DNA of 64,000 bases, taken from Acidobacteriota bacterium. Its GTDB lineage: Bacteria > Acidobacteriota > Vicinamibacteria > Vicinamibacterales > SCN-69-37. The notes under the pieces are model-generated. The model worked only from the letters and a program-made list of their open reading frames with translations. It made no database searches and had not been told where the DNA came from. Position numbers and translations under genes: made by a program. This document shows positions 5,096 to 22,507 of the stretch, piece after piece. The DNA lies in the NCBI GenBank assembly GCA_016716905.1, contig JADJUS010000004.1, positions 326,249 to 390,248 of the forward strand, read 5' to 3'. The number at the start of each line of letters is the position of its first letter. Within the stretch, counting starts at the first letter, position 1.

Positions 5096-5138
5096 GGCAT
5101 TCCCCTTTGCAAGACGTGAGGGAATTCTAACGCAGGGC

Positions 5139-6380: not shown

Positions 6381-6456
6381 ACGACGGCCAGCCCGTGTTC
6401 ACCGGAGTCACAAGGGATGATGGGCTCCAGCTGAGGGGCCGATAGAATGAGTTGGG

Positions 6457-7317: not shown

Positions 7318-7326
7318 ACTCGGCGG

Positions 7327-7854: not shown

Positions 7855-7883
7855 TTCACTACCTCCGGGGGAGAGGCAAGGCC

Positions 7884-9359
7884 ATGTCCACACACACGCT
7901 GAGTTCTGCCGCTGCCGTCGCATTGAGCGGCGCCGTTGTTGCCACGATGTTCACGATCTCGCCCGTCAGCGCGCAGGCGCCGACGGCTGAACAGGCCCTG
8001 ATCACAAAAGCTCGTGGCATCCACGAGCGTGTGATCACGCTTGATACGCATGACGACATCAACGCGAACAACTTCCGCGCGGACTGCAACTACACGATGC
8101 GCCTGACGACACAGGTCAACCTGCCGAAGATGAAAGAGGGCGGGCTGGATGTGTCGTTCATGATTGTGTATGTCGGCCAGGGCGCGCTGACCGAGGAAGG
8201 GTATGCCGGCGCGTATCGACAGGCGGTGGAGAAGTTCGACGCCGTGCATCGCCTGACGAAGGAGATTGCCCCGAACGAGATCGAACTCGCGCTGACGCCT
8301 GCGGATGTGGTGCGCATCGCGAAGAGCGGCAAGAAGGTGGCCGTCATCGGGATCGAGAACGGTTACGCGATCGGCACCGACCTCGAGCGTGTGAAGGAGT
8401 TCTGGACACGCGGCGGCCGGTACATGTCATTGGCGCACAACGGCAACAGCCAGCTGGCTGATTCCAACAGCACCGAAGCGGCGAATGGCGGCATTCATGG
8501 CGGCTTGAGTCCTCTGGGCAAGCAGGTCATTGCCGAGATGAACAAGTGGGGGATCATGGTGGACATCTCCCATCCCTCCAAGCAGGCCAACATGCAGGCG
8601 ATTGCGTTGTCGAAGGCGCCCGTGATTGCGTCGCATTCTTCGACGCGCGCGCTCGCCAATCACACCCGCAATATGGACGACGAGCTGTTGCTCGCGCTCA
8701 AGAAGAATGGCGGCGTGATGCAGACCGTGGCGTTTGCCACCTACGTGAAGGTTGATGACAAGGCGGCCGACCGGCAGGCCGCGACCACCGCACTGAACAC
8801 CGAGTTTGGTATTGCCGCGCCCGCCGGACGGGGTGCTGGTGGCGGTGGCCGTGCAGGCGGCGCCGGCGGGGGACGTGCGGGTGGCGAAGGACGCGGGCAG
8901 GGGGCCACGCCGGCGGCACCGCCTCCCTGTTCGATCGAGGATCCGAACACGGGGACCGCACCGCAGGCGGCGCGTGGGGGCGGGGCCGGCCGTGGCGGCA
9001 ATCAGGCGGCCCTTGCCGCACTGACTCCGGAACGTCGCGCGGAGTACGACACGAAGCTGGCGGCCATTCAGGCCAAGTTCCCAGCACCGGCGCGGGCGAC
9101 GGTCTCGGATTTTGTGGACCACATCGACTATGCCGTGAAGCTCATCGGCGTCGATCACGTGGGCATTTCATCGGATTTTGATGGCGGGGGCGGGGTCACT
9201 GGCTGGAACAGCGCGGCGGAGACCTTCAATGTGACCCTGGAGTTGGTCCGCCGAGGCTACACCGAGGAACAGATTGGCAAGATGTGGAGCGGCAACCTGT
9301 TGCGGGTGTGGGCCGAGGTTGAAAAGGTAGCCAAACAGCTTCAGGCTGGGTCGAAATAG
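7884..9359 (+). CDS. Membrane dipeptidase (peptidase M19, renal dipeptidase family) with Gly/Arg-rich insertion
   Basis: TLDTHDD, AHNGNS, VDISH, ASHSS and SSDFDGG motifs. ATG 7884 is preceded by GGGGGAGAGG. Signal-like N-terminus. Confidence 0.85.
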   Translation: MSTHTLSSAAAVALSGAVVATMFTISPVSAQAPTAEQALITKARGIHERVITLDTHDDINANNFRADCNYTMRLTTQVNLPKMKEGGLDVSFMIVYVGQGALTEEGYAGAYRQAVEKFDAVHRLTKEIAPNEIELALTPADVVRIAKSGKKVAVIGIENGYAIGTDLERVKEFWTRGGRYMSLAHNGNSQLADSNSTEAANGGIHGGLSPLGKQVIAEMNKWGIMVDISHPSKQANMQAIALSKAPVIASHSSTRALANHTRNMDDELLLALKKNGGVMQTVAFATYVKVDDKAADRQAATTALNTEFGIAAPAGRGAGGGGRAGGAGGGRAGGEGRGQGATPAAPPPCSIEDPNTGTAPQAARGGGAGRGGNQAALAALTPERRAEYDTKLAAIQAKFPAPARATVSDFVDHIDYAVKLIGVDHVGISSDFDGGGGVTGWNSAAETFNVTLELVRRGYTEEQIGKMWSGNLLRVWAEVEKVAKQLQAGSK

Positions 9360-9413: not shown

Positions 9414-12047
9414 TCACTCCATCCCCAGCTTCTTCCGCTTCAAAAACAGGCCTTTTCTCGAAATCCCGAGCAATTTCGCCGCATCTGACACCCGGCCGCC
9501 GGTGTGTTCGATCGCCCGGGCGACAAACGCCCTTTCGATATGGGCGATGGCCTGGTCGAGGGGCTGGTCCAGTCGCACGCTGACGACCGGTCCGGCCGGA
9601 GCAGACTGAGCGGCCGGCCGCCTCGACCTCCACCCCTGAGCAATTTCCGCCGACAGGTCATCCGCACCAAGCGTCGCGCCATCGTCGGCAAGGGCGACCA
9701 CGCGCCGCACTTCGTTGGCGAGCTCCCGGATGTTGCCAGGCCAGTCATGGAGCAGAAGTGCGGCAATGAAGTCGTCGGCGACATTCAAGCGTTGCCGGCC
9801 GGCCTCTTCGCACGCTTTGCGGACAAAGAGCGCGGCAAGGGCGGGAATCTCGTCCTTGCGTTCGCGCAGGGGCGGCAGCCAGAGCGGCGCGACCCGCAGC
9901 CGATAGAACAGATCACTTCGGAAGCGGCCCTGGCTGACCAGTGCGTCGAGCGAGGCGTTCGTGGCCGCCACGATTCGCACGCGCGTGTGGGTGGGGCGGG
10001 GTTCGCCAACGACATGAATCTCGCCCGATTCCAGGAATCGCAGCAACTTTGGCTGGATGGCCGGATCCAGATCGCCGATCTCATCAAGAAACAACGTGCC
10101 ATGTTCGGCGGCGCGAAACACCCCTCCCGATGTTTCGAAGGCGCCGGTGAACGCGCCGCGGCGATGGCCGAAGAGCTGACTCTCCACCAGGTCCTTCGGG
10201 ATCGCTGACGCATTAAAAGGCACGAATGGGCCTCGCGACCATTTGCTATGGGTGTGGATGACCCTGGCCACCACTTCTTTTCCCGTTCCCGTTTCCCCCA
10301 TGATCAAGACGGGCAGTTCGCTCGAGGCCAGCTTGATCGCGACGCGCAGCACCTCCTGCATGCGCGGAGACCAGAACACGGAGTCGCCGCCGCTTGGGAG
10401 TGAGACCTGCGGCCAGAGGAGGTCTTCGTCGAGCACGTGTGGATCCCCGGAGCGGCTGATCCCCGCTTTCGCGATTTCGACAAGATTGCGAATCAGCGAG
10501 ACGTCTTCAAGGGCAAACACGTCACGGAAACGCAGCACTGCCCGCCGGTCGATGTCCGACAGGATGATCCGGTGCGTGCCGTCCGCAGCGGTCTCCCAGG
10601 CGACGGGGCCGCCGGTGGCCTCGTTGGCGGTTGTCTCGGTGGTCACGTCGAGCCGCGTGCGCAACGCGGTGGTGGAGACCACGGCTGCGAGGCGCTGGCT
10701 CATCACGTCAATGGAATGTCCGGCGCTGAGGGCGGTGGCGATGTCGGTCAGGATGAGATTCGTACTCTCGGTGTCGGTCTGATCCCGGCGTGCGGCGGGG
10801 AGCTCGGTCCTGTCGTGGGCCGGCAAGGCCTCGCGTTCCTTGGTGACCACCCATTCCTGAAACCGATGGGAGATGGCCTGGCACGCGCGAAGGGCCCGAT
10901 CGAAGTGCCTGTTTCCGCGCGCGGCGTCGCCTCGAAGCGTGAGGCACGTGCCGGTGGCGGCTTCGACGGTGATGAGGGGATCGACGGCACCTCTGGGACA
11001 CAATCGCAGCGCGGCGACCAGCGCTTTGTCGGCATCGTCGTGTTGACCGAGGAACGCCAGGGCGCGGGCTTTTGCGCTCAGGAGCGACGCGTGCCAGACG
11101 CGCAGCTGACGGCGTTCCAGTTCCGGGTGTGCGGCGTCGACGATGGTGACGATGCCTTCCCAGTCTCGAATGTGGCTGAGGTAGAGGCACCGGGTGATCT
11201 GATGGGCGAGGTCGTACCAGGATCGCGCCGGTACGTGTTGACGTCGAATGAGTGCCTCGGCTTCGTCGAGGTGAGCGACGCACTCAGGCAAGTTGCCTTC
11301 GTATAAGGCGACGTTGGCTAGGCTGTCGGCAAGGCCTAGCTGAACGAACGACATTTCGCCGCCGACTTGACCGGCCTGATTGAGGTAGTGACGCGCCTGC
11401 TTCGCGTTGCCAAGGTACAACGTGAACAGACCAATGTTGCCTAATGCTCGGGCGCGGGGGACTTGCTTGTCGTTCTGATTCGCCTCCTCAAAAGCTCTCA
11501 CTGCGGCGCGACGGGCTTGATCCACGCTACCGACATCTAGGAGAGGTGATGCGGAAACAAGTTCGATTGAGCACCTGAGGTCGCTTGATCCCGATTCCAC
11601 TGCAAGGCGCTTAGCGATGTCTAGGTGCAGCCGCGCGTCCGAACTTGAACCGCGAAGAGCTTCGATTCGCGCAACTGCGAGATGAAGCCCTGCGAGTGAC
11701 GATGCGTCTCCGATGGCAGTAGCGAGTTGCCGAAGGGTCGCCAGGCGCGATGCGGCGTCTGCAGGAGCCTGAAATGTGGACTCCCTCACGAAGAGCGAGA
11801 ACTCTGCGCCAAACCTTGCACTGTCCGGTTGGTCCCGGAGTTCCCCACATAAGTCTGAAAGCAGCCCGAGTGCCTTAACGACATCGCCGGTGTCATACAG
11901 CGCCGTGGCGTGAACCAGCCGGCCAGGGAAATCGGTTAATCCATCGCCCTCCACTGCGGCGATAGCCTCGGAGAGACGACCGTTCCGGTACAGGGACTGG
12001 GCCTGCTCCGTCGATGGCGACACACTGGCGAATGTGCGTCCGGGCAT
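9414..12047 (-). CDS. Sigma-54-dependent transcriptional activator (bEBP) with long N-terminal TPR-like sensor region, AAA+ core and C-terminal Fis-type HTH
   Basis: GETGTGKE Walker A, GAFTGA sigma-54 contact loop, GNIRELANEV, C-terminal AAKLLGISRKGLFLKRKKLG. No receiver domain. About 420 aa helical-repeat N-terminus. Confidence 0.9.
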   Translation of the reverse strand: MPGRTFASVSPSTEQAQSLYRNGRLSEAIAAVEGDGLTDFPGRLVHATALYDTGDVVKALGLLSDLCGELRDQPDSARFGAEFSLFVRESTFQAPADAASRLATLRQLATAIGDASSLAGLHLAVARIEALRGSSSDARLHLDIAKRLAVESGSSDLRCSIELVSASPLLDVGSVDQARRAAVRAFEEANQNDKQVPRARALGNIGLFTLYLGNAKQARHYLNQAGQVGGEMSFVQLGLADSLANVALYEGNLPECVAHLDEAEALIRRQHVPARSWYDLAHQITRCLYLSHIRDWEGIVTIVDAAHPELERRQLRVWHASLLSAKARALAFLGQHDDADKALVAALRLCPRGAVDPLITVEAATGTCLTLRGDAARGNRHFDRALRACQAISHRFQEWVVTKEREALPAHDRTELPAARRDQTDTESTNLILTDIATALSAGHSIDVMSQRLAAVVSTTALRTRLDVTTETTANEATGGPVAWETAADGTHRIILSDIDRRAVLRFRDVFALEDVSLIRNLVEIAKAGISRSGDPHVLDEDLLWPQVSLPSGGDSVFWSPRMQEVLRVAIKLASSELPVLIMGETGTGKEVVARVIHTHSKWSRGPFVPFNASAIPKDLVESQLFGHRRGAFTGAFETSGGVFRAAEHGTLFLDEIGDLDPAIQPKLLRFLESGEIHVVGEPRPTHTRVRIVAATNASLDALVSQGRFRSDLFYRLRVAPLWLPPLRERKDEIPALAALFVRKACEEAGRQRLNVADDFIAALLLHDWPGNIRELANEVRRVVALADDGATLGADDLSAEIAQGWRSRRPAAQSAPAGPVVSVRLDQPLDQAIAHIERAFVARAIEHTGGRVSDAAKLLGISRKGLFLKRKKLGME

Positions 12048-12146: not shown

Positions 12147-14087
12147 CTAGTGGACCTGTCGACCGTCCCGTCGGCCGGCCAAATGATTCGCCAGCCCGTG
12201 TTCCTGCGGCAGAACTGAGCCCGGAGCGAACAGTAGCGCCGCGGATTCAAGCATCCGGCTGTGGTTTTTGTGAAATTCTTCGCCCGCGTACAGGGCAATC
12301 ACACCAACTACCTGGTCGCCATCGAAGACCGGGGTCGCCAGTGTAAAACGCAAAGGTACGGGCAGGACGCGGGCCACCGGTCCCAGGTCGAGGGCGGCGT
12401 CGGAGTTGAAGACGATCTGCCGATGGGCAAACGCCCAGCCGGAGATTCGCTCACCCACGGGAATTCTGGTTGATTCAATCGTCGACGAGCCGGAGCCGGC
12501 GCAATACACAGCCGTGAGATCGCCCTGGCCGGGCGACTGCGTATAGAAGGCCACCGCAGCGGCCGGCACCACGCGGCGCACATGACGGAAGAAGATCTCA
12601 GCCGCGGCCTCGAGCGACGGCGCCTTGGGCAACTCGCGCCGAAGTTCTCCAAACTCCCGTTCCTCGGCCGTCGCCGCGCTGATGACGTCCAGGGCCGAGT
12701 GCGCGAGGTGGCCCACCGCCGCGCCAGCGCCTGGGACGCTGCGGCCCTCCGCTTCATCGATGGCTTCAAGCCGGTCGAGGATCCGGAGGAATCCATCCAC
12801 GACCCAGGGGTCATACATGGTGCCCCTGCGGTCAATCAGGATGTGCTCAGCCTGCTGTCGGCTCATCCGCGGACGATAGGGGCGGTCGGAGGTGAGTGCG
12901 TCGTAACAGTCAACCACCGATAGAATCCTGGCGCCGAGCGGGATCTCCTGTCCCTTCAATCCATCGGGATATCCCTGGCCGTTCCAGTTCTCGTGGTGAT
13001 GCCTGACGATAGGTTCCACCGGGTACGGGAATTCGATGCTTTTGAGGATGTTTGCGCCGACGGCCGCGTGTTCCTTCATCTTCTCGAACTCGGCCGTGGT
13101 TAGCGGACCGGGTTTGTTGAGGATGTACTCGGGCACGGCCAGCTTTCCAGTGTCGTGCAGGAGGGCCGCCGCCTCGATAGCCTTGATCTGCCGATCATCG
13201 GTGACCCCGAGTGCGCGCGCGGTTTCCATCGTGTACTGCTGCACGCGCCGGATGTGACCGTGAGTGACCTGGTCCTTCGCATCAATGGCCATCGCGAACG
13301 CCGCGATCGTGGACATATGGACCTTCTCGATAGCGTCGATTTTTGCCTGCATTTCTTCGACCCTACTTGCGGAGTTCCGATACGTGAAGTAGAGCATCGT
13401 CATCAGCGGGAGGATGACGAGTATCCGTGCGAAGATGCCGTCTGGGGAAGCCAAGAGCGCTGCGATCGATGCGCCGGCGATATAAGTCAGAAATCCGTCT
13501 CGAATCCCCCACCAAGTGACTGCGAAGTCGCGCAACAGCCTTGTTCGGCTCTTTGATTGGGTCAGGGCAATCGCCATCGCGACGAGGCAGGAATTGACCA
13601 AGAAATACAAGATGGCAAAAATGGCCAAGCCGAAAACGAAGAGCGATGGATCGTCCTGTAGTTGCAGTGGAGGCGGTCCAGTAATCGAAAAAAGCGCCTT
13701 TGACGCCAGCCAGACAGAAAGTGGAGGCGCCGCCAAGTTAAACGGCGTTCGATTCCAGTCAAAACGGCCCTTCGAGTAGCAAATTGTGGCAGAAAGAACT
13801 ACCGCGTCGAGCAATACCAGCACCGTGCCCACTGCTGGGCCGTACACCAAGGTTCCCCAGATTACGAACGTCTCGGAGATTGAGTAACGGGCGCCCACGG
13901 ACTGAAACTTGACTGACAAGAACCCGCTGACCAAGGTCAGTAATGTCAACGACAGCCACTCGCTAGCGGGCGGGTCGACAATCACCTGGCGGATGTTAAT
14001 CGCCGATGTCAGGAATCCACTGACGACAACAGTCACCCAGAAGGCTCGGGCTGTCGCTGAAAAAGTTGGGCTAGTTGGCTTGGTCAT
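12147..14087 (-). CDS. Integral-membrane HD-GYP domain protein (putative c-di-GMP phosphodiesterase) with C-terminal GAF domain
   Basis: About 230 aa N-terminus with multiple hydrophobic helices. HGHIRRV...LHDTGK...HHENWNGQGYPDGL (HD-GYP). GAF-like C-terminus. Confidence 0.85.
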   Translation of the reverse strand: MTKPTSPTFSATARAFWVTVVVSGFLTSAINIRQVIVDPPASEWLSLTLLTLVSGFLSVKFQSVGARYSISETFVIWGTLVYGPAVGTVLVLLDAVVLSATICYSKGRFDWNRTPFNLAAPPLSVWLASKALFSITGPPPLQLQDDPSLFVFGLAIFAILYFLVNSCLVAMAIALTQSKSRTRLLRDFAVTWWGIRDGFLTYIAGASIAALLASPDGIFARILVILPLMTMLYFTYRNSASRVEEMQAKIDAIEKVHMSTIAAFAMAIDAKDQVTHGHIRRVQQYTMETARALGVTDDRQIKAIEAAALLHDTGKLAVPEYILNKPGPLTTAEFEKMKEHAAVGANILKSIEFPYPVEPIVRHHHENWNGQGYPDGLKGQEIPLGARILSVVDCYDALTSDRPYRPRMSRQQAEHILIDRRGTMYDPWVVDGFLRILDRLEAIDEAEGRSVPGAGAAVGHLAHSALDVISAATAEEREFGELRRELPKAPSLEAAAEIFFRHVRRVVPAAAVAFYTQSPGQGDLTAVYCAGSGSSTIESTRIPVGERISGWAFAHRQIVFNSDAALDLGPVARVLPVPLRFTLATPVFDGDQVVGVIALYAGEEFHKNHSRMLESAALLFAPGSVLPQEHGLANHLAGRRDGRQVH

Positions 14088-14143
14088 CGTGGAGAAGGGA
14101 CCGGAGTGGCCGACGAGTCGGGGCGTGCCCGTCGATTCGTGGC

Positions 14144-14173
14144 TCAGTCCAAGTGATGACCGTAAGAAATCAT
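14144..14173 (-). pseudogene. Mini-ORF P8, highly diverged copy (MISYGHHLD)
   Basis: ATG ATT TCT TAC GGT CAT CAC TTG GAC TGA. Same length and GAC TGA ending as P7, but the core is lost. Confidence 0.2.
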
Positions 14174-14205
14174 GGTTTCAAAAAGAATCGCGCTAAGCAG
14201 AGCAA

Positions 14206-14235
14206 TCAGTCCCAAACAACAATTGTGCAAGTCAT
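14206..14235 (-). CDS. Mini-ORF P7, peptide MTCTIVVWD
   Basis: ATG ACT TGC ACA ATT GTT GTT TGG GAC TGA. An in-frame ATG two codons upstream is also possible. Confidence 0.35.
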   Translation of the reverse strand: MTCTIVVWD

Positions 14236-14287
14236 AGTCATCCTTCGACAGGAACGAGCAAAAGGCGAGAACGTCAAGAAGGGCAAC

Positions 14288-14317
14288 TCAGCTCCAAACG
14301 ATAATTGTGCAAATCAT
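14288..14317 (-). CDS. Mini-ORF P6, peptide MICTIIVWS
   Basis: ATG ATT TGC ACA ATT ATC GTT TGG AGC TGA. 9-codon length retained. Confidence 0.4.
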   Translation of the reverse strand: MICTIIVWS

Positions 14318-14331
14318 GGCCGTCACTGCTT

Positions 14332-14388
14332 TCAAGCGATCAGTAGCGTTAACGAACTGTCAGCCCAAACGATAGTCGTGCGAATCAT
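14332..14388 (-). pseudogene. Mini-ORF P5, degenerate copy (MIRTTIVWADSSLTLLIA)
   Basis: ATG ATT CGC ACG ACT ATC GTT TGG GCT GAC... The stop at codon 10 is lost, so it reads on to TGA at 14332. Confidence 0.3.
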
Positions 14389-14427
14389 GTCGTCCTGCTT
14401 TCAGAGCTACTAGCGTTGGCGACCGTC

Positions 14428-14457
14428 TCAACCCCAAACGATAATTGTGCGAATCAT
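14428..14457 (-). CDS. Mini-ORF P4, peptide MIRTIIVWG
   Basis: Same 30 nt as P3, preceded by AGCAGGACACC. Confidence 0.55.
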   Translation of the reverse strand: MIRTIIVWG

Positions 14458-14496
14458 GGTGTCCTGCTTTCAGAGCTACTGGCGTTGGCGACCGTC

Positions 14497-14526
14497 TCAA
14501 CCCCAAACGATAATTGTGCGAATCAT
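14497..14526 (-). CDS. Mini-ORF P3, peptide MIRTIIVWG
   Basis: ATG ATT CGC ACA ATT ATC GTT TGG GGT TGA, preceded by AACAGGACACC. Confidence 0.55.
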   Translation of the reverse strand: MIRTIIVWG

Positions 14527-14565
14527 GGTGTCCTGTTTTCAGAGCTACTGGCGTTGGCGACCGTC

Positions 14566-14595
14566 TTAACCCCAAACGATGATTGTGCGAATCAT
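14566..14595 (-). CDS. Mini-ORF P2, peptide MIRTIIVWG
   Basis: ATG ATT CGC ACA ATC ATC GTT TGG GGT TAA, preceded by GGAAGCAGGACATC. Confidence 0.55.
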   Translation of the reverse strand: MIRTIIVWG

Positions 14596-14635
14596 GATGT
14601 CCTGCTTCCTAGAATCAAGGCCTTGAAGTGAGTCA

Positions 14636-14665
14636 CTAACCCCAAACAATAATCGTGCGGTTCAT
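14636..14665 (-). CDS. Mini-ORF P1, peptide MNRTIIVWG
   Basis: ATG AAC CGC ACG ATT ATT GTT TGG GGT TAG. The ATG overlaps the protease TGA (cgATGAac). Confidence 0.55.
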   Translation of the reverse strand: MNRTIIVWG

Positions 14666-16506
14666 CGCTGGCCTCCACTGGTGACGTCGGCTTGGATTGC
14701 GTTGTCCCACACCAAGGTGTTGTCCCAAACCAAAGTGTTATCCCAGACCAAGGTGTTGTCCCAGACGAGCGTGTTGTCCCAGACCAACGTCTCGCCCCAG
14801 ACTCGGTTGTCCCAGACCAAGGTGTTATCCCAGACAAGCGTGTTGTCCCAGACCAAGGTGTTGTCCCAAACCAAGGTGTTGTCCCAGACCAAGGTGTTGT
14901 CCCAGACCAGGGTGTTGTCCCAGACCAAGGTGTTGTCCCAGACCAGCGTGTTATCCCAGACCAGGGTGTTGTCCCAAACGAGAGTCGTTCCCCACGTCGA
15001 CTGTTGGCCGAAGGCCATTCCGCCGCCGAAGGATTGTTCGCCGCCGATCGTGTTCGACGTCTGCACCTTGTCGCCGTCCTCGCGCATGGCAAACTTCACG
15101 GCCAGGGCGACGTTGATCGACCCGGCGCCTTGCGAGATGAGTCCCTCGCCCGGGATGAACTGCGCCGTGAGCTGCAGCGCCGTCTTCACCTGACGCGGAG
15201 TCAGATCCTCATTCGCCTGCAGCAACATTGCCGCCGCGCCGCTCACCACCGCCGCAGCCATGCTCGACCCCGACAGCACCAGGTAGGCCCCGCCGTTCGC
15301 GCCGGTCACACGACGCTCCGGCAGCATCTCCCACAGCAGGCTCCGCTTCGAAATGGTCGACACAATCGCATTGCCCGGCGCCACCACGTCCGGCTTCAAC
15401 AGCGTGTTCTTCGGCAGATCCTGGGGCGTGGCAGGCGCCGGCGTGCCCGGGTCCACAACGGGACCACGCGAGCTGTACGTCGCGACCTTGTCGTCACTCC
15501 GGAACACCGTGCCGTTGGTGTTCAACGCGCCCACCGTCAGCGCACCAGGCGTGAAGCCGGGCGACACAATGGCGCCGACAATCGGCACACCCGCCGCGTT
15601 CTTGCCCATGTTGCCGGCCGATGCCACCACCACAATGCCCGCGGCCACGGCGCGCTCCACCGCGAGCGCCAGCGGATCGTCGCGATACGCTTCCGATGCC
15701 GGGTGACCCAGCGAGAGGTTGATAACTCTGATGTCGAGGCGATAGCGGTATTTGATGCAGTAGTCGATCGCCTCGATCACGTCCGACACATACCCCGAAC
15801 CATCGTCGCTCAGCACTTTCATGCTGATGAGCGACACGCCCGGCGCCATGCCGATATACGGCGTGCCCTCTGCACTGCGGCTGCCGGCGCCGCTGCCCGC
15901 AATCGTGCCCGCCACGTGCGTGCCGTGGCCGTAGCCGTCGCGACCGCCTTCGCGCACGCCGCCCCGCGGGTCCGTGAAGTCGTACGACACCTGCAGGCGA
16001 TTATTCAGGTCCCCATGCGACGACACGCCGGAGTCCAGCACCGCGACGCCCACTCTCCGGCCGGTGATGCCGCCAAACGCCGAACCCGATTCGCCGCGCC
16101 ACACCTGGTCGGCGCCTGTGGCCTGCGGCGTGATGGCCATGGTGCTGTAAATCGGCCGGTCTTCCTCGATGAACTTCACGCCAGGGTCGGAAGACAGCGA
16201 GTTGACCTCGGTCGACGTCCCGTAAAACACCGCACCCGACGCCATCCGCTTGACCCGCATTTTGTGCGTCCGCTCAAGGCGGTCCACTTCGTCCTGGGGC
16301 GCCGTCACGATGACCGGAATCTGCCTGCCGTCGTCGGGCTTTGCCAGCTTCTGCGACAACTCGCGCGACATCCGGGCTCGCTGGCCGTCAGCGGCCATCG
16401 CGATGGACGGAAGGGCAAGTCCGACGACGAGAGCGAAGCCCAGGAGGGCGACCCAGACGTGTGACAGGCGATTGGGCGTGTTGTGTGCGTTCATAAAAGC
16501 ATTCAT
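14662..16506 (-). CDS. Secreted subtilisin-like serine protease (peptidase S8) with C-terminal (TLVWDN)15 repeat domain
   Basis: Signal/TM segment WVALLGFALVVGLALPSIAMA. Catalytic triad contexts VLDSGV, HGTHVAGTIAG and SGSSMAAAVVSGAAAML. 614 aa. Confidence 0.92.
   Translation of the reverse strand: MNAFMNAHNTPNRLSHVWVALLGFALVVGLALPSIAMAADGQRARMSRELSQKLAKPDDGRQIPVIVTAPQDEVDRLERTHKMRVKRMASGAVFYGTSTEVNSLSSDPGVKFIEEDRPIYSTMAITPQATGADQVWRGESGSAFGGITGRRVGVAVLDSGVSSHGDLNNRLQVSYDFTDPRGGVREGGRDGYGHGTHVAGTIAGSGAGSRSAEGTPYIGMAPGVSLISMKVLSDDGSGYVSDVIEAIDYCIKYRYRLDIRVINLSLGHPASEAYRDDPLALAVERAVAAGIVVVASAGNMGKNAAGVPIVGAIVSPGFTPGALTVGALNTNGTVFRSDDKVATYSSRGPVVDPGTPAPATPQDLPKNTLLKPDVVAPGNAIVSTISKRSLLWEMLPERRVTGANGGAYLVLSGSSMAAAVVSGAAAMLLQANEDLTPRQVKTALQLTAQFIPGEGLISQGAGSINVALAVKFAMREDGDKVQTSNTIGGEQSFGGGMAFGQQSTWGTTLVWDNTLVWDNTLVWDNTLVWDNTLVWDNTLVWDNTLVWDNTLVWDNTLVWDNTLVWDNRVWGETLVWDNTLVWDNTLVWDNTLVWDNTLVWDNAIQADVTSGGQR
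14701..14985 (-). repeat. In-frame 18-bp tandem repeat encoding TLVWDN x10, RVWGE, then TLVWDN x5
   Basis: 15 units have identical peptide sequence but at least 9 different nucleotide versions (Thr ACC/ACT/ACG, Leu TTG/CTC/CTT/CTG, Val GTG/GTT/GTC, Asp GAC/GAT). Confidence 0.95.
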
Positions 16507-16557: not shown

Positions 16558-16573
16558 CGCACATACCGTACCA
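16558..16573 (-). promoter_or_regulatory. Candidate sigma-54 (-24/-12) promoter for the S8 protease operon
   Basis: Minus strand TGGTACGGTATGTGCG versus consensus TGGCACG-N4-TTGCW. GG and GC have the correct 10-nt spacing. About 52 nt lie between the -12 element and the ATG at 16506. Confidence 0.5.
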
Positions 16574-16606: not shown

Positions 16607-16629
16607 AAAAAACCGGCCGAAAAGGCCGG
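16607..16629 (-). terminator. Rho-independent-terminator-like hairpin on the minus strand, upstream of the sigma-54 promoter
   Basis: Minus strand CCGGCC-TTTTC-GGCCGG followed by TTTTTT. No annotated minus-strand gene lies upstream of it. Confidence 0.5.
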
Positions 16630-16660: not shown

Positions 16661-16683
16661 CTGACGCATTACAAAATCGTCAG
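16661..16683. promoter_or_regulatory. Inverted repeat CTGACG-N11-CGTCAG, candidate activator-binding site (UAS)
   Basis: Perfect 6-bp arms about 90-110 bp upstream of the -24 element, inside the A/T-rich divergent intergenic region. Confidence 0.35.
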
Positions 16684-16818
16684 CCAAACCGCAAAAATGT
16701 GTAATTTGTGAGTGTAAGGTCTTCAGGGGAGGGCGACCCCTAAGTCCCATAATTGCCTCATAATACGCCCCATCTGCGTTGGCCGAATGACACTTTTGGA
16801 CCCGATTTTAGGAGCGTT

Positions 16819-18549
16819 ATGACCCCCTCCCGTATCCTGCGCCTGGCCCTGCTGATAGCACTAGGTGTGGCGGTGGTCATGTTTGCCCGGCAGTGTGGTA
16901 CCCCACAATCCGGGGCCGATACGGCGCCTCAAACCGGCGGCAAATTGGTGGCCAGTTACCGCACAGAACCCACCCATTTCAACCGTCTCGTGGAGGCGCG
17001 GCCGGGGGCTCGTCTGACGGCGTTACTCACGCAGGCCACCCTGCTCCGCGTGGACCCGAACACAGCAGAGTTGGTGCCGCGCCTTGCCACAGAGTGGACC
17101 GGAACACCCGACGGATTGACGTGGACGATCACCCTTCGCAGTGGCGTACGTTTTTCCGACGGCACGGCCTTCACCGCGTCGGATGTGTTGTTCACATTCC
17201 AGGCGATCTACGACGACCGCGTGAAGAGTCCTCTGGCGCAGGACATGCGCGCCAAAGGCCAGCCCTTCCAGCTGCGCGCCATCGACGATCACCACATCGT
17301 GCTCACCTTCCCCTCCCCGTTCGGACAAGGCCTGGCCATTCTCGATAGCGTGCCTATCCTGCCTCGCCACAAACTCCAGGCAGCGTTTGATGCCGGTACG
17401 TTCCGCGACGCCTGGAGCCCGAGCTCGAATCTCTCGGAGATGGCTGGTCTGGGCCCGTTCATCCTCAAGGAGTACGTGCCTGCGCAGCACCTGCGATTTG
17501 TCAGGAACCCCAACTTCTGGCGCACGGACGCCACTGGACAGAAGCTGCCGTATCTCGACGAACTCGAGGTGCAGATTGTGCCCGAACAAAATGCCGAACT
17601 CCTGCGCCTGCAGTCGGGCACGACAGATCTCACCAACGGCGGTGCGCGCGCGGAAGACCTCGCCATGCTGCGCGATGCGGAAACCGCCGGCCGCGTCAGG
17701 CTCGTTGATGCCGGCCCCGCGATAGACGTCAGCACACTCTGGTTCAATCTCACTCCAGGTTCGAAGGCCGTCGCTGACAAACCCTGGCTGGCGCAGGAGG
17801 CATTTCGCCGTGCGATCTCACACGCGGTGAACCGGCAGGCCATCGTTGACACCGTGCATCTGGGCGCCGCGGTGGTGGTGTATGGCCCGGTGTCACCGGG
17901 CCATGGCGACTGGTTCGTGCCCGATCTTGGAGCCACGCCGTTTGACCTCGCTCGCGCGCTCACGCTCCTCACGTCGATCGGTCTGCAGGATCGCAACGGC
18001 GACGGCGTGCTTGACGACGCGTCCAATCGGCCCGTCGAGTTTTCGCTCTTCACGCAGAGTGGACACACCGAGCGCGAACGCACGAGCACACTCGTGGGCG
18101 AACAGTTGCGCCAGGTCGGCATCAAGGTGAATGTGGTCCCGATGGATCAGCGGGTCGTACAGGCGCGGTTCGGGAGTGGCGACTACGAAGCGATCTACTA
18201 CGGCGCGCAGGCCAGCTCAAAAGACCCGACCAGCAACCGTGGGTTCTGGTTAAGCAATGGCCCCATGCACTTCTGGAACCCCAATCAGCTGACGCCGGGC
18301 TCGGAGTGGGAAGGCCGCATCGACGCGCTCCTGCAGCAGGTGGCCGAGACGATGGACCCTGCCGAACGAAAGCGGCTGTTCACCGAGGCGCAGCAACTCC
18401 TCGCCGACCATGTGCCGGCGCTGTGGTTTGCGGCGCCGCATGTGTCCGTGCCGATGAGTGCGCGGGTGGGCGGAGCGAGGCCAACAGTCATCCAGCCGCC
18501 GGTGTTGTGGAACGCGGAAGAACTGTTCGTCCTGGGTCCGCGTCGGTGA
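16819..18549 (+). CDS. ABC transporter substrate-binding protein, family 5 (Opp/Dpp peptide-binding type)
   Basis: AGGAG 5 nt before ATG 16819. Signal/anchor RILRLALLIALGVAVVMFA. SBP_bac_5-like sequence (LVPRLATEWT..DGLTWTITLR.GVRFSDG). Confidence 0.85.
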   Translation: MTPSRILRLALLIALGVAVVMFARQCGTPQSGADTAPQTGGKLVASYRTEPTHFNRLVEARPGARLTALLTQATLLRVDPNTAELVPRLATEWTGTPDGLTWTITLRSGVRFSDGTAFTASDVLFTFQAIYDDRVKSPLAQDMRAKGQPFQLRAIDDHHIVLTFPSPFGQGLAILDSVPILPRHKLQAAFDAGTFRDAWSPSSNLSEMAGLGPFILKEYVPAQHLRFVRNPNFWRTDATGQKLPYLDELEVQIVPEQNAELLRLQSGTTDLTNGGARAEDLAMLRDAETAGRVRLVDAGPAIDVSTLWFNLTPGSKAVADKPWLAQEAFRRAISHAVNRQAIVDTVHLGAAVVVYGPVSPGHGDWFVPDLGATPFDLARALTLLTSIGLQDRNGDGVLDDASNRPVEFSLFTQSGHTERERTSTLVGEQLRQVGIKVNVVPMDQRVVQARFGSGDYEAIYYGAQASSKDPTSNRGFWLSNGPMHFWNPNQLTPGSEWEGRIDALLQQVAETMDPAERKRLFTEAQQLLADHVPALWFAAPHVSVPMSARVGGARPTVIQPPVLWNAEELFVLGPRR

Positions 18550-19466
18550 TCCACGCCACGGCGGCGTACGTCGCACGCCGACTGGTGGCCGCGCTCGTTC
18601 TCGTGCTCTCGGTGTCAACCGCCGCGTTCGTCCTGGCGCGTCTCGCACCCGGAGATGAAACCACGGCTGACGTGATGGAAGGTGTCGACCCGAAGGTGAC
18701 CGCGGACACGCGGGAACGGCTCGGACTCGACCGGCCGTTTCCTGTCCAGTTGGCGCACTTCACCTGGGACTTGCTGCGACTCGATCTGGGCGAATCCGCA
18801 AGGTACGATCGGCCCGTTGCGGCACTGGTCGGCGAACGCGGCGCCAACACCGCCCGCCTGGCGTTTGTCGCACTGTTGCTCGCCACACTCATCGGACTCC
18901 CTCTCGGCGTGGTGACCGGCGCCTACTCCGGGACGTGGTTTTCAAGGCTGCTGTCGATCGCCTCGATCGCCGTACTCGCCTGTCCGCCTCTGGTCGCGGT
19001 GTTGGTTCTGCTGTATGTCGCGGCGATCACAGGGTGGGTGTCGGTGGCGTCTGGAGATCTGCTGGTGCCGGCGCTCGCCCTCGGACTGCCTGTCGGCGCG
19101 GCACTCGAGCGCCTGCAATCGCAGGCCACACACGACGCCATGGCATCACCCGACCTGCTGGCGGCCGCCGCTCGCGGCATCCCGCCTCATCGGCTGGTCT
19201 GGGTGCATGCCGCACGCCAGTCGTTGCGACCCGTGCTGGGCGTCTACGGCATCGTGATCGGCAGCCTCTTCAGCGGTTCGATGGCCGTTGAGTTCGCCAC
19301 GTCATGGCCCGGACTTGGCCGTTTAATGCTCGAGGCGGTGCAGCACGGCGACGTCCGCCTGGTGGCTGGATGTGTGTTCGCCGGTGGCATCTGCCTCGCC
19401 GTCGGCAACCTTGCGGCTGATGCCCTTCGGTCACTCGCCGACCCCAGAGTGAGGGACCTGTCGTGA
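18546..19466 (+). CDS. ABC transporter permease (OppB/DppB type)
   Basis: GTG 18546 overlaps the SBP stop (GTGA). YVARRL... N-terminus typical of OppB. Multiple TM segments. Confidence 0.8.
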   Translation: MIHATAAYVARRLVAALVLVLSVSTAAFVLARLAPGDETTADVMEGVDPKVTADTRERLGLDRPFPVQLAHFTWDLLRLDLGESARYDRPVAALVGERGANTARLAFVALLLATLIGLPLGVVTGAYSGTWFSRLLSIASIAVLACPPLVAVLVLLYVAAITGWVSVASGDLLVPALALGLPVGAALERLQSQATHDAMASPDLLAAAARGIPPHRLVWVHAARQSLRPVLGVYGIVIGSLFSGSMAVEFATSWPGLGRLMLEAVQHGDVRLVAGCVFAGGICLAVGNLAADALRSLADPRVRDLS

Positions 19467-20455
19467 TTCGCCGCGCTGCAGGCGCCGTGTTGCTCGCCAT
19501 CGTGCTGATGGCGACGGCCGCGCCGTGGATTTCGTCCAACCGTCCCGATCTGCCGTTTGACGATCGCGCGTACGCGCCGCCCATGCGCGTGCATCTGCGC
19601 GATGCCGCCGGGTGGCACGCGCCGTTTGTCTACCAGCAGCGTCTCGTCCATCGCATCAACCGCACGTATGTCGACGATCACACGGCCCGCGTGCCGCTGC
19701 GATGGTTTGCGAACGGTCACCTCGTGTCGATCGATCCCGGCGCCGGCCCGTTGCTCTGGTGCGGCGCAGACGCACTGGGCCGCGATCTGTGTGCCCGACT
19801 CGTGTACGGCGCCAGGTTGTCGCTTGGTGTTGCCGCGCTTGGCGCATTCGGGGCGTTGCTGCTCGGCGCGTTGCTCGGCGCCGTGGCTGGATCCTCCGGT
19901 GGCCGCCTCGACACACTCATCACAACAGTGGCCGATTTCGTGCTGGTTCTTCCCGTCGTGTACCTCGTGATCGTGCTGCGCGCCACGCGCCCCCTCGTCA
20001 TCAGCCCGGCTGAAATGTTCTGGCTCATGACGATCCTGTTCGCGCTTGCGGCCTGGCCCGACGTCGCCCGAGGGGTGCGCGCGATCGTCGCCACCGAGCG
20101 TACGCGCGATTATGCCGCCGCCGCACGCGCCCTTGGCGCCGGGCCCTGGCGAGTGATGACCCACCTGTTACCGGCCGCCTACGGATTTCTGCGCATCGAG
20201 TTTGTCCTGCTCATCCCGGCACTTCTCGTGGCCGAGTCCACGCTTTCATTCGTTGGCTTTGGATTCGGAGGGGCGACGCCCAGCTGGGGCGGACTGCTGA
20301 AGGACGGCGAAGCGTTGACGGCCATGTACTCGGCGCCATGGCTCCTGCTGCCGGCCGCCGCACTCTTTGTCGTCGTGCTCGCGCTCCAAACGGTGGCAGG
20401 CGGAAGGCCCGGTTTCCCCGCATCGATCGTTGACACAACGGCCGCGCGCCGATAG
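19463..20455 (+). CDS. ABC transporter permease (OppC/DppC type)
   Basis: Start overlaps the previous stop. LGADALGRDLCARLVYGARLSL motif typical of OppC. TM-rich. Confidence 0.8.
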   Translation: MIRRAAGAVLLAIVLMATAAPWISSNRPDLPFDDRAYAPPMRVHLRDAAGWHAPFVYQQRLVHRINRTYVDDHTARVPLRWFANGHLVSIDPGAGPLLWCGADALGRDLCARLVYGARLSLGVAALGAFGALLLGALLGAVAGSSGGRLDTLITTVADFVLVLPVVYLVIVLRATRPLVISPAEMFWLMTILFALAAWPDVARGVRAIVATERTRDYAAAARALGAGPWRVMTHLLPAAYGFLRIEFVLLIPALLVAESTLSFVGFGFGGATPSWGGLLKDGEALTAMYSAPWLLLPAAALFVVVLALQTVAGGRPGFPASIVDTTAARR

Positions 20456-20480
20456 CCTCCGGAAGGACGATGAAGATCCG

Positions 20481-21365
20481 ATGAATCTCAGTGGCGTATT
20501 TCCCCCGGTGCCGACACCGTTTGATTCGGCGACCGGCGAATTCACACCGGCGGCCCTGACAGCCAACATCAACCGGTTGCTGCGCGCACCGGTGGCCGGC
20601 GTACTCGTGCTCGGCTCGAATGGCGAAGCCGGCCTGCTCGATGAGACTGAGGCCGATCGTGTCGTCGCTGCCGCCCGCGCAGTCGTGCCGGCCGGCCGCA
20701 CGCTGCTGGTGGGCGCCGGGCGCGAGTCCACACGCGCCACGATCGCGGCGTGCGTCCGCGCTGCGGGCAATGGCGCGGACAGCGTGCTCGTTCGTGCGCC
20801 GTCGTTTTTTAAGGCGCAGATGACGCACGAGGCGCTCGTCACGCACTACCGCGCGGTGGCCGACGCCTCACCGGTGCCCGTGATGCTCTACAACGTGCCC
20901 GGCATGGCAGGCTTCAGCCTCACGGTGCCCATGGTGCGCACGCTGGCCGCACACGCGAACGTGATCGGGATCAAGGAAACCAGCAACGACCTGGAACGCC
21001 TCGGCCAGTTCGCGGCGATCACCGACAGCGGTTTCGACGTGCTGGTGGGCTGGGCGCCGGTGGCACACAGCGCGGCCGTGGCGGGTGCGCGCGGTGCCAT
21101 CATTGCCGTGGCCAACGTGCTGCCTGACGTGTGCACGCAACTGTGGTCCCTGGCCACGGCGGGCCGGCACGCCGAGGCACTTGTGCTGCAACGCCGTATC
21201 ACCACCATCGCACAGCTGGTGTCGAGCGTGCATGGTGTGGCCGGTCTCAAGTGCGCGCTCGATCTGGTGGGCGCGTATGGCGGGCCCGTGCGCGCCCCGC
21301 TCCTGCCGGTGACCGCGGCCGTGGCCGAGGACATCCGCTCGGCGCTTGCTCCATGGCAAGCGTGA
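20481..21365 (+). CDS. DapA/DHDPS-family aldolase, HOGA1-like (putative 4-hydroxy-2-oxoglutarate aldolase)
   Basis: GVFPPVPTPF, LGSNGEA (GSNGE rather than the GTTGE of DapA proper), and Schiff-base Lys context IGIKETS. Confidence 0.7.
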   Translation: MNLSGVFPPVPTPFDSATGEFTPAALTANINRLLRAPVAGVLVLGSNGEAGLLDETEADRVVAAARAVVPAGRTLLVGAGRESTRATIAACVRAAGNGADSVLVRAPSFFKAQMTHEALVTHYRAVADASPVPVMLYNVPGMAGFSLTVPMVRTLAAHANVIGIKETSNDLERLGQFAAITDSGFDVLVGWAPVAHSAAVAGARGAIIAVANVLPDVCTQLWSLATAGRHAEALVLQRRITTIAQLVSSVHGVAGLKCALDLVGAYGGPVRAPLLPVTAAVAEDIRSALAPWQA

Positions 21366-21387
21366 GACACACGCGAAGAATGTGACC

Positions 21388-22503: not shown

Positions 22504-22507
22504 GCGC

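Follow-up and report, generated by a model that had tools for sequence, protein, structure and literature searches.

Genetic organization of the locus

The stretch of DNA analyzed here (the window, 64,000 nt from a soil acidobacterium) carries on the minus strand, at 14144-14665, an array of eight units of 69-82 bp each, lying between the gene for a secreted S8 protease and two regulator genes. The array forms part of a cassette whose order is a sigma-54-type promoter, the protease, the mini-gene(s), a membrane HD-GYP/GAF protein and a TPR-containing sigma-54 activator. The protease (14662-16506, minus strand) is a subtilisin-family enzyme of 614 aa with a signal-peptide-like N-terminal segment, a propeptide and a catalytic domain, for which an exact look-up in a public collection returned no match. 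The HD-GYP and GAF protein (12147-14087, minus strand), a predicted c-di-GMP phosphodiesterase, has a MASE9-like N-terminus with multiple TM segments. The final gene (9414-12047, minus strand) encodes a sigma-54 activator (bEBP) in which an N-terminal TPR array of about 550 aa precedes an AAA+ sigma-54 interaction domain and a Fis-type HTH (Pfam domains Sigma54_activat, AAA_lid_14 and HTH_8).

The promoter motif, TGGTACGGTATGTGCG (GG-N10-GC; 16558-16573, minus strand), lies 67 nt upstream of the protease ATG. No other block of the intergenic alignment is invariant, and the motif is found upstream of the S8 gene in most related loci. About 100 nt further upstream is an imperfect inverted repeat, CTGACGCATTACA / TGTAATTTGTGAG (16661-16712), partly conserved in orthologues, which we regard as a candidate binding site for the activator. 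Beyond it, on the plus strand, a divergent Opp-like peptide ABC importer occupies 16753-20455 (SBP_bac_5, 16753-18549; permeases, 18306-19466 and 19463-20455). No terminator-like site was found between the S8 and HD-GYP genes, and no sigma-54 promoter within the array or before the HD-GYP gene; a two-mismatch match at 14215-14230 is P7 coding sequence and was discarded.

Each unit of the array holds, or once held, a very short ORF. P1 (14636-14665; ATGAACCGCACGATTATTGTTTGGGGTTAG) encodes MNRTIIVWG followed by TAG, has a strong Shine-Dalgarno (SD) sequence, GGAGG, 6 nt upstream, and overlaps with its ATG the TGA stop of the protease (14664-14662). MIRTIIVWG is encoded three times, by P2 (14566-14595; stop TAA, with an AGGA box upstream), P3 (14497-14526; TGA) and P4 (14428-14457; TGA). 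Two further copies are intact variants with weaker ribosome-binding sites: P6 (14288-14317) reads MICTIIVWS, its Arg replaced by Cys, and P7 (14206-14241) has likewise lost the Arg and reads MTMTCTIVVWD, or MTCTIVVWD if the ATG at 14235 is used. The remaining two have decayed, P5 (14332-14388) having lost its stop through an indel, so that it reads MIRTTIVWADSSLTLLIA, and P8 (14144-14173; MISYGHHLD) having lost the motif. All sequence statements made in a preliminary description of this DNA, including copies, coordinates, peptides and stop codons, were reproduced. Its phrase "eight mini-genes" is right for the number of units, but only four of them are canonical.

Tandem Repeats Finder reports a period of 69 bp at 14287-14607 (4.6 copies, 87% matches), and a repeat search recovers a 33-nt ORF core in seven copies spaced 69-82 nt apart. 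When the units are aligned, the conserved block is the ORF, and the flanks of P1 are unrelated to those of the other units except for the AGGA-type box. No further copy of the repeat occurs in the 64-kb window (chance expectation, 0 matches), and the repeat search revealed no inverted repeats inside the array. Permissive Rfam searches of 13500-15300 identified no family for the units; the sole match, a sub-threshold IRES_Bag1, falls on the 18-bp coding repeats of the protease and is a repeat artefact. Whether one unit or two were folded, or the region of P1, or a spacer from an orthologous locus, the result was no more stable than shuffled sequence (z = +0.9 to +1.5 for the units), and we therefore reject a structured sRNA, a riboswitch or a REP hairpin.

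Conservation of the mini-ORF in related loci

An ATG-initiated mini-ORF is present at the equivalent position after the S8 gene in about 23 Acidobacteriota loci, whose S8 proteins share 38-67% identity. We tabulated 30 such ORFs from these loci, representing 18 distinct core sequences, with the consensus M-(1-5 residues, often basic)-[ILT]-I-[IV]-W-[GSTD]-[DE]?-stop. All 30 start with ATG, and by our own count from the table 28 of them are preceded, at a distance of 6-13 nt, by a GGAG/GAGG/AGGA-type box. Lengths run from 7 to 11 aa, with 28 of the 30 at 8-10 aa, and TAG, TAA and TGA all serve as stops. Changes in the length of the N-terminal part keep the frame, while the flanks and the rest of the intergenic DNA cannot be aligned between loci. 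The three aliphatic codons have T at their second position in 17, 18 and 18 of the 18 distinct cores, and their third position is free; Leu codons in the cores include TTG, CTA, CTC, CTG and TTA. The two copies at one locus (L013) encode the identical peptide MKLIIWGE within unrelated flanks, and their five nucleotide differences are four synonymous changes and a TAG/TAA swap. A motif scan returned 29 matches in 63.5 kb of sequence downstream of S8 genes, against 1 in 2.18 Mb elsewhere.

The preliminary description had argued that these are real coding genes and not REP-like elements, and had proposed a search for the motif downstream of related S8 genes with attention to frame and synonymous bias. 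Such a search bears the argument out. Start codon, SD-like box, peptide and stop are all kept, in frame and with free third positions, whereas the 69-bp repeat and its spacers are missing from the orthologues; this is the reverse of a repeat retained while its ORF is lost, the pattern that the description had set against its own proposal. We conclude, from sequence comparison, that the units are very probably copies of a real ultrasmall gene, and we infer that it is translated in vivo.

The opposing view is that the array has no function and that its ORFs arise by chance. It would then be an intergenic repeat of the REP type, or else the decaying remains of protease 3' ends that were once duplicated. 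The visible decay of P5-P8 would fit this view, as would the near-identity of P2-P4, which, being recent duplicates, make the synonymous pattern within the array weak evidence by itself. However, the ORF, its start, SD and stop are conserved across loci whose S8 proteins share only 38-60% identity and whose intergenic DNA cannot be aligned, and the repeat is unique within the window and has no hairpin structure. The conservation of the mini-ORF effectively refutes the non-functional reading, which we consider hardly credible.

Orthologues hold one or two mini-ORFs, so the array is best seen as a local amplification that has partly decayed. The contig of the closest orthologue ends within the S8 repeats, and its sequence does not extend to the array region. 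Two copies occur at four other loci (L005, L010, L013 and L083), and the independent rise in copy number there and in the window suggests that dosage is under selection. That P1 overlaps the protease stop, by contrast, is peculiar to this window: in orthologues 6-370 nt, and in most cases 23-100, separate the mini-ORF from the end of the S8 gene, so the translational coupling put forward in the preliminary description is not a conserved feature.

The surrounding gene order, including the divergent SBP_bac_5 and permease genes, is kept in all informative mini-ORF loci. The Opp-like importer is syntenic at every mini-gene locus with upstream sequence, an association confounded by phylogeny, since all mini-ORF loci fall in a single S8 clade. 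In every orthologous locus the next gene after the mini-gene(s) is that for the HD-GYP protein. The final mini-ORF of the orthologues ends 22-60 nt ahead of the start of this gene, some spacers measuring only 22-30 nt. In some loci this interval contains a short hairpin or a CCGATA motif.

Such spacing is also compatible with a leader-peptide role. A cis-acting uORF would tune translation or transcription of the HD-GYP gene through a nascent-peptide pause at ...I-[IV]-W-x-stop, and the free peptide would be idle. The residues adjoining the stop are indeed the most conserved part of the peptide, a Trp near the stop recalls TnaC, and the hairpin or CCGATA motif of some loci could also be counted in favor of this explanation. 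On the other hand, four to eight copies in the window and two at four other loci are hard to square with a single uORF, and in the window some 340 nt separate the final canonical copy from the HD-GYP gene. The spacers, often too short for a terminator or antiterminator, revealed no conserved structure of either kind, and a pause would leave the likeness of the peptide to the protease repeat unit unexplained. We regard a cis-acting leader as unlikely, while retaining it as a competitor.

The constant proximity of the HD-GYP gene would also suit an intracellular modulator, that is, an amphipathic peptide that would bind the MASE9-like or GAF domain and set phosphodiesterase activity with no need for export, in the manner of the small proteins that modulate sensor kinases. 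The mini-ORF always adjoins the HD-GYP gene and is, judging from the layout of the cassette, co-transcribed with it, and the peptide is basic at its N-terminus, hydrophobic in its core and acidic at its end. It is also, as described below, better conserved than the S8 repeats. Yet 8-10 residues are too few to span a membrane, known small-protein modulators have at least 20 aa, and many pairs of S8 and HD-GYP genes have no mini-ORF at all. A modulator of this kind seems to us distinctly improbable.

Relation to the protease repeats

The last 100 or so residues of the protease consist of about 15 hexapeptide repeats of the type TLVWDN, encoded with an 18-bp period at 14701-14976. The preliminary description had noticed that the tail of the mini-gene peptide echoes this unit, and the resemblance holds family-wide: the S8 repeats follow the pattern x-T-[ILM]-[IV]-W-x, and the core of the mini-ORF peptide fits the repeat motif shared by the family (aliphatic-aliphatic-W-small/acidic). 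The end of the peptide is often like the C-terminus of the protease, as at locus L012, where the protease ends in SIIWGE and the peptide is MRPLIIWDE. The peptide is nevertheless better conserved than the repeats. At two loci (L089 and L090) MNRLIIWGE is identical, whereas the repeats are TVVWS and TIIWA, which points to a conserved partner for the peptide.

This likeness is the basis for supposing that the peptide is a partner of the protease, a free repeat strand that would cap, nucleate, compete with or inhibit the beta-strand repeats, or else a product-like ligand of the active site. The match of the peptide core to the repeat motif and the shared ends agree with this proposal, and AlphaFold2 places a short strand in each hexapeptide, albeit with low confidence. 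With alignments of 20 and then 97 sequences, the catalytic domain was predicted confidently and the repeats at a pLDDT of about 26 and then 30-50, yielding no usable fold for the repeat region. Against a pairing of this kind, peptides do not covary with the repeats of their own protease (permutation p = 0.64), which argues against specific peptide-repeat pairing and led us to drop the idea of locus-specific pairs. In addition, S8 paralogues and distant S8 genes with similar Trp repeats have no mini-ORFs (L007, L008, L084, L087, L088 and many others), and the protease has a signal peptide, while the mini-gene product would be cytoplasmic and has no export signal. We hold a repeat partner to be a quite doubtful explanation, less so only than a chance ORF.

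Comparison with known short-peptide systems

The preliminary description recognized no described family like this one, a statement that proves too strong. The closest described analogue, to judge by shared features, is the leaderless communication peptide (LCP) or SIP-RopB class of Firmicutes, found in Streptococcus pyogenes and its relatives (PMC10518010). In that class an ultrasmall ORF of some 24-30 bp directly specifies the mature hydrophobic peptide of 8-10 aa, which has neither leader nor cleavage site (PMC10518010). Here as there, the ORF has a Shine-Dalgarno motif, lacks secretion leader and processing sites and is missed by annotation pipelines. The peptides of that class are highly hydrophobic and made mostly of aliphatic and aromatic residues; in our loci the core, [ILT]-I-[IV]-W, is of this composition, but most peptides have K or R near the N-terminus and many end in D or E. 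Both systems have as neighbors a cytosolic TPR-domain regulator and the gene of a secreted protease, speB in the one and S8 in the other, which is controlled by the system in the former case and may be in the latter. An LCP is secreted, taken up again and bound by its receptor, which activates an adjacent target; for our loci the sigma-54 promoter ahead of the S8 gene and the neighboring Opp-like importer are suggestive as context. The differences are also clear. The candidate receptor here is a TPR-AAA+-HTH_8 sigma-54 activator in place of an Rgg/RopB HTH-TPR protein, and the host is a diderm acidobacterium in place of a member of the Firmicutes. The peptide has a basic N-terminus, often an acidic C-terminus, and a likeness to the repeat of the neighboring protease; and the operon includes an HD-GYP c-di-GMP enzyme and shows, in the window, tandem gene amplification.

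The RRNPP and Rgg-SHP systems (see also PMC10518010), which pair short hydrophobic linear peptides (such as the SHP DIIIIVGG) with TPR-type cytosolic receptors, are a second point of comparison. They share with our loci an Opp-family importer, extracellular or membrane proteases and a peptide gene beside the receptor gene, and differ in receptor family, sigma-factor dependence and phylum. Their peptides are made as propeptides of 20-50 aa with export and cleavage signals, neither of which is present here, since 7-11 codons leave no room for a secretion signal.

The leader peptides TnaC, Erm and ToiL are single-copy and act via defined RNA structures or Rho sites. Our mini-ORFs resemble them in being very short, hydrophobic, conserved in amino-acid sequence and directly upstream of a gene, and differ in their tandem copies, in having no conserved structure and in their likeness to the repeat of a neighboring protein; the single-copy feature of such arrest uORFs, which work by ligand-dependent ribosome stalling, fails in the window and at L005, L010, L013 and L083. 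The attenuators trpL, thrL and ilvL have a run of regulatory codons followed by alternative terminator and antiterminator hairpins; the mini-ORF has only one Trp codon, no terminator-like site, no folding above shuffled sequence and, in orthologues, a spacer as short as 22-30 nt. The yeast alpha-factor and the KEX2-processed repeat peptides of fungi are multi-copy precursors cut by S8 (kexin/subtilisin) proteases, and so also associate tandem short-peptide repeats in one polypeptide with an S8 enzyme; in our loci it is the protease that bears the repeats, and those systems have nothing that corresponds to the stand-alone mini-gene. REP elements are dispersed in many copies over unrelated intergenic regions and have palindromic or hairpin-forming units; the array is confined to one place in the window and its unit is neither palindromic nor hairpin-forming. 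No literature was found on an acidobacterial peptide system or on one built from S8, HD-GYP and bEBP proteins.

The idea that the peptides are leaderless RiPP cores, also raised in the preliminary description, is without support, because the cassette holds no modifying enzyme, such as would be expected beside any RiPP precursor, mccA-type heptapeptide genes included: Pfam and NCBIfam searches of the cassette and about 25 kb of neighbors detected no YcaO, rSAM, lanthipeptide synthetase or MccB-like protein, their content being confined to S8, HD-GYP/GAF, sigma-54 activator, ABC importer parts, peptidases, DHDPS and aminotransferase. NCBIfam has no dedicated family for the four cassette proteins, all of which score below cut-off except for a generic HDIG assignment of the HD-GYP protein.

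A possible leaderless peptide ligand

Among the four functional hypotheses of the preliminary description, that of a signal or ligand peptide fits best, with the uORF and the repeat-domain cap as rivals. We tentatively propose that the mini-gene is a directly translated gene of a conserved operon, amplified in this genome, and that its peptide is a leaderless ligand or signal read by the regulator of the operon, a proposal to which we attach a little less than even confidence. The array product may, then, belong to a class of leaderless signalling peptides otherwise known only from Gram-positive bacteria.

As we envisage it, each mini-gene would yield an unprocessed 8-10-mer that starts with Met and 1-5 often basic residues, continues with three aliphatic residues and Trp, and closes with small and/or acidic residues, and tandem amplification of the 69-bp unit would raise its dosage in this genome. 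The peptide would serve as a ligand or signal analogous to the SIP/LCP peptides of Firmicutes, and its receptor would be the TPR domain of the sigma-54 activator or, as an alternative, the HD-GYP membrane domain. The sigma-54 promoter driving protease, peptide and regulators would thereby come under positive feedback, and this loop would be coupled to c-di-GMP turnover. The S8 repeats, which present the motif about 15 times, may also supply related peptides extracellularly for re-import by the adjacent Opp-like system.

The activator, the sole TPR protein of the cassette, does not belong to the RopB clan (Rgg-type HTH plus TPR). Its N-terminus, searched as a single sequence against the PDB, gave nothing significant (RapJ, E = 0.11). 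A profile of the same region matched the peptide receptors NprR (4.8e-5) and RapJ (6.7e-5) and other peptide-binding TPR proteins, matches that are generic and non-discriminating, as designed TPRs and LGN score far above NprR or Rap; RopB/Rgg was absent among the best 60 of 110 matches. The signal model is further opposed by a 9-mer with no export signal and a cassette with no exporter, and the Acidobacteria are diderm. On the side of uptake, Opp is dispensable for import in known LCP systems (PMC10518010).

An extended form of the model would have two sources of peptide, the 8-10-mer of the mini-gene and the S8 repeats as a polyprecursor released by autoproteolysis, with re-import by the Opp-like system, readout by the TPR-sigma-54 activator and a link to c-di-GMP. 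We put this forward as a speculative scheme with a small chance of being right.

Implications for the Acidobacteriota

The Acidobacteriota are among the most abundant and least understood soil phyla. To our knowledge, annotation pipelines overlook genes as short as 8-10 codons, communication between cells by peptides counts as a Gram-positive trait, and the LCP class is known only from Firmicutes, and there only because genetics turned up one example. The family of 8-10-codon genes described here is supported by unusually clean comparative evidence in the Acidobacteriota, and the compact operon in which it resides joins a secreted protease, c-di-GMP turnover and sigma-54 transcription. Should the peptide prove to be a cis-acting leader instead, it would be a new sequence-specific leader peptide. 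If it is a ligand, leaderless peptide signalling would extend to diderm bacteria, the TPR-sigma-54 activator would be a new class of sensor, and synthetic 9-mers would give a testable handle on regulation in organisms that are genetically hard to work with. And if the two-source communication system were true, it would be the first case of leaderless peptide communication outside the Firmicutes.

Mini-genes downstream of the S8 protease gene

Direct reading of the minus strand of 13900-14900 reproduced each of the ORFs that the preliminary description had listed in this interval: P1 (14665-14636, MNRTIIVWG, ATGAACCGCACGATTATTGTTTGGGGTTAG); P2 (14595-14566, stop TAA), P3 (14526-14497, stop TGA) and P4 (14457-14428, stop TGA), all three encoding MIRTIIVWG; P5 (14388-14332), whose stop is lost; P6 (14317-14288, MICTIIVWS); P7 (14241-14206, MTMTCTIVVWD); and P8 (14173-14144, MISYGHHLD). 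The ATG of P1 overlaps the TGA of the S8 ORF (614 aa, 14662-16506, minus strand), a subtilase by Pfam (6e-49). The array is real, with a 69-bp period, 4.6 copies and 87% identity in Tandem Repeats Finder and seven in-register copies of a 33-nt ORF core, spaced 69-82 nt apart, in the repeat search; only four of the eight reported mini-genes, however, are canonical copies. Alignment of the units identifies the ORF as their conserved block and P2-P4 as near-identical recent duplicates, with divergence rising through P5-P8. No other copy of the repeat occurs within the 64-kb window, the chance expectation being zero matches. On the opposite (plus) strand, sigma-70-like promoter matches (TTGGCG-18-GATAAT, 14416-14445 and 14485-14514) fall once per 69-bp unit; the repetition of the coding sequence probably accounts for them.

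Relatives of the S8 protease number in the thousands, with source names of Acidobacteriota and Vicinamibacterales; an S8 profile served to fetch 80 loci from genomes and 80 from metagenomes, which were scanned for mini-ORFs (7-11 aa, after the S8 stop). At locus L002, where S8 is 60% identical, the 149-bp gap to the next gene holds one ORF, ATGGTGACCGCACGCATCATCGTTTGGAGCTAA, encoding MVTARIIVWS and preceded by GGAG. The positive loci carry one or two ATG mini-ORFs each, mostly within 23-100 nt of the S8 stop: MLVRAIIVWS (L003), MVKRPIIVWS (L004), MRNQMIIVWS and MTQQIIVWT (L005), MKLIIWGE (L009, and in two copies in L013), MVTKEIVIWS and MKSRIIVWS (L010), MARIIVWGD (L011), MRPLIIWDE (L012), MRIIVWTD (L015), MAKLIIWGE (L017, L091), MSRLIIWGE (L018), MKPLIIWGE (L019), MRQLILWED (L023), MNRLIIWGD (L026), MRRFETIIWT and MQRPSTIIIWG (L083), MNPIIVWTD (L085), MTIIIWG (L086), MNRLIIWGE (L089, L090) and MKSIIVWD (L096). 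On four long-read MAG contigs (L014, L015, L019, L023) the S8 frame is broken within the repeat region, probably an effect of indel errors where the sequence is repetitive, rather than a mark of real pseudogenes; L014 has a mini-ORF-like VNPIIVWTD without a stop.

All 30 mini-ORFs start with ATG; in 28 of them (our own count from the ORF table) a GGAG/GAGG/AGGA(G) box precedes the ATG by 6-13 nt, and all three stop codons are used. Length differences in the N-terminal part are multiples of a codon. Ahead of the Trp stand three aliphatic codons, with T as second base in 17/18, 18/18 and 18/18 distinct cores and a freely varying third base, Leu being written TTG, CTA, CTC, CTG and TTA. The two L013 copies differ at five nucleotides yet specify one peptide: four changes are synonymous, and the fifth exchanges the stop (TAG/TAA). 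A control scan with M-x(0,6)-[ILVM][ILV][ILV]-W-x(1,2)-stop gave 29 matches in the 63.5 kb of S8-downstream windows against 1 in all other fetched sequence (2.18 Mb, both strands). The preliminary description had named a repeat kept without its ORF as the observation that would count against coding, and the reverse was found: what related loci have in common is the ORF rather than the DNA, and retention of the ORF between flanks that cannot be aligned from locus to locus supports the coding interpretation. These sequence patterns make it very probable that the mini-ORFs are a genuine translated gene family.

An RNA element or generic repeat was ruled out by Rfam, by folding and by the lack of inverted repeats and terminator-like sites. 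At permissive thresholds Rfam returned nothing beyond a sub-threshold artefact over the protease coding repeats, shuffled controls folded more stably than single or double units (z = +0.9 to +1.5), the repeat search found no inverted repeats in the array, and the interval from the S8 stop to the following gene is free of terminator-like sites. That the array is repeat DNA without function is extremely improbable. The Rfam artefact, IRES_Bag1 at 14674-14935 (plus strand; 28.9 bits against a gathering threshold of 37), sits wholly within the 18-bp coding repeats of S8, which drive this false positive.

Conserved neighbourhood and promoter

The mini-ORF is always followed by a gene for a multi-TM (MASE9-like) HD-GYP protein (12147-14087, minus strand, in the window), usually with GAF and sometimes with GGDEF, and then by a TPR protein gene (9414-12047, minus strand), in which a sigma-54 AAA+ domain follows the TPR where the contig is long enough; an SBP_bac_5 binding protein and two permeases (16753-20455, plus strand) lie upstream and divergent. 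The gene set is complete at all mini-ORF loci whose available sequence is long enough to show it. None of the ~17 loci with S8 then HD-GYP but without SBP_bac_5 has a mini-ORF, nor do the S8 paralogues without HD-GYP (L007, L008, L084, L087, L088). The association with SBP_bac_5 is perfect but coincides with one S8 clade, and may be purely phylogenetic in origin.

A rival reading, favoured by the 22-60-nt spacing in orthologues, is that the mini-ORF encodes a cis-acting leader peptide for HD-GYP; its tandem arrangement, its likeness to the protease repeat and the absence of RNA structure all speak against this, and we consider it unlikely. Distinctly unlikely, too, is a peptide that modulates the HD-GYP protein inside the cell.

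Several observations concern the surroundings. CCGATA[AG] recurs between mini-ORF stop and HD-GYP start in eight loci (L009, L019, L023, L083, L085, L086, L089, L096) within spacers that cannot otherwise be aligned, and in L009 it belongs to a 7-bp hairpin directly before the HD-GYP ATG; the window has no clear copy. Peptide-catabolism genes are abundant around the cassette (27-9359 and 16753-23935), including an ACE-like M2 peptidase (27-1670), an S9 prolyl-oligopeptidase-family protein (2228-5095) and an M19 membrane dipeptidase (7737-9359). The set extends to the Opp-like importer, after which come DHDPS, a class-V aminotransferase and an M48 peptidase, a block syntenic in L001 from SBP_bac_5 to the aminotransferase, with no M48 on that contig. 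Farther away, a 422-aa ORF (48956-50224, minus strand) has an N-terminal (AEPK)n low-complexity stretch encoded by repeats within 50105-50181 (a perfect 12-bp repeat of 3.9 copies and a 7-bp repeat), and its C-terminal half looks by eye histidine kinase-like.

At 67 nt before the S8 ATG (16573-16558, minus strand) stands TGGTACGGTATGTGCG, with the GG-N10-GC spacing of sigma-54 promoters. TGG[CT]AC-N6-TGC has 51 matches in the fetched loci (2.25 Mb), the majority of them on the strand of S8 and no more than a few hundred nt ahead of it, and only two in the window, one being this site. When seven intergenic regions are aligned, this sequence is the sole block that is invariant, the rest having diverged, and a partly conserved inverted repeat lies ~100 nt upstream of it. 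Motif, position and gene content together suggest a sigma-54-dependent operon whose likely regulator is its own TPR activator. Between this putative promoter and the divergent SBP_bac_5 start, a perfect GC-rich hairpin (16613-16629, minus strand) runs into TTTTTT (CCGGCCTTTTCGGCCGG TTTTTTC; T-run to ~16604) and looks like an intrinsic minus-strand terminator, with no upstream minus-strand gene evident; a GGTTTT stretch of similar kind aligns in L001, L003 and L004.

Protease repeats and the mini-gene peptide

The S8 protein of the window ends in about 15 TLVWDN hexapeptide repeats, and many relatives have C-terminal repeats, such as DTIVWGGRGVSG, DTIIWGNRGGG and NAIIWGHRS. AlphaFold2 models the catalytic domain well but reaches no more than pLDDT 30-50 in the repeats, where it places a short strand in each hexapeptide at low confidence. 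The peptide core, aliphatic-aliphatic-Trp-small/acidic, matches the family-wide S8 repeat motif, and the peptide often ends like the protease itself. A partnership with the protease repeat domain would be one reading of this likeness; in a permutation test, however, the match between peptide and protease repeat was not closer within a locus than between loci (p = 0.64), and we judge such a partnership improbable. Since there is no locus-specific covariation and the peptide is more conserved than the S8 repeats, its partner is suggested to be a conserved component (regulator, transporter or ribosome) and not a fast-evolving repeat array. Distant S8 relatives (Pyrinomonadaceae, Blastocatellia) have G-V-L-[VLI]-[SG]-D-type repeats in place of Trp hexapeptides (L024, L035, L039, L042, L046, L056, L059, L060, L065, L067, L068, L070, L071 and others), and the L017 protease has DIIVFGE repeats; judged by sequence, the C-terminal short-repeat module is widespread and fast-evolving in acidobacterial S8 proteases.

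Discussion

The tentative reading that we favour, as quite possible if somewhat short of probable, is that the mini-gene peptide serves as a leaderless ligand or signal. Its sensor would be the TPR-sigma-54 activator or, as an alternative, the HD-GYP protein, and the signal would act back on the sigma-54 promoter. This proposal draws on purifying selection on the peptide at the sequence level, on repeated independent copy-number gains (the window, L005, L010, L013, L083), which point to a product acting by dosage, on the predicted TPR sensor encoded in the operon, on the adjoining peptide importer and on a close published analogue. The TPR profile of the activator matches peptide-binding TPRs including NprR and RapJ, a similarity that is generic.

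[quoted passage not shown] LCPs control the adjoining secreted protease gene, are imported independently of Opp and have been reported from Firmicutes only (PMC10518010). The acidobacterial mini-genes share their gene architecture, peptide size, core composition, and protease and TPR neighbours. We nevertheless do not file them as LCP members, because the protein proposed as their receptor is a sigma-54 AAA+ activator rather than Rgg/RopB, they belong to a different, diderm phylum, and their cassette has an HD-GYP partner and a peptide resembling the protease's own repeats; by analogy, we rate them as a candidate system that would work like an LCP. The mini-genes also lacked the features tested for RRNPP propeptides, for attenuator leaders, for RiPP precursors and, within the 64-kb window, for REP elements.

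Mini-gene function is now constrained to a small set of candidate models, which synthetic peptides make open to experiment at once. What emerges is a cleanly conserved, unannotated family of putative 8-10-codon genes in a major soil phylum, located in a compact protease / c-di-GMP / sigma-54 cassette.
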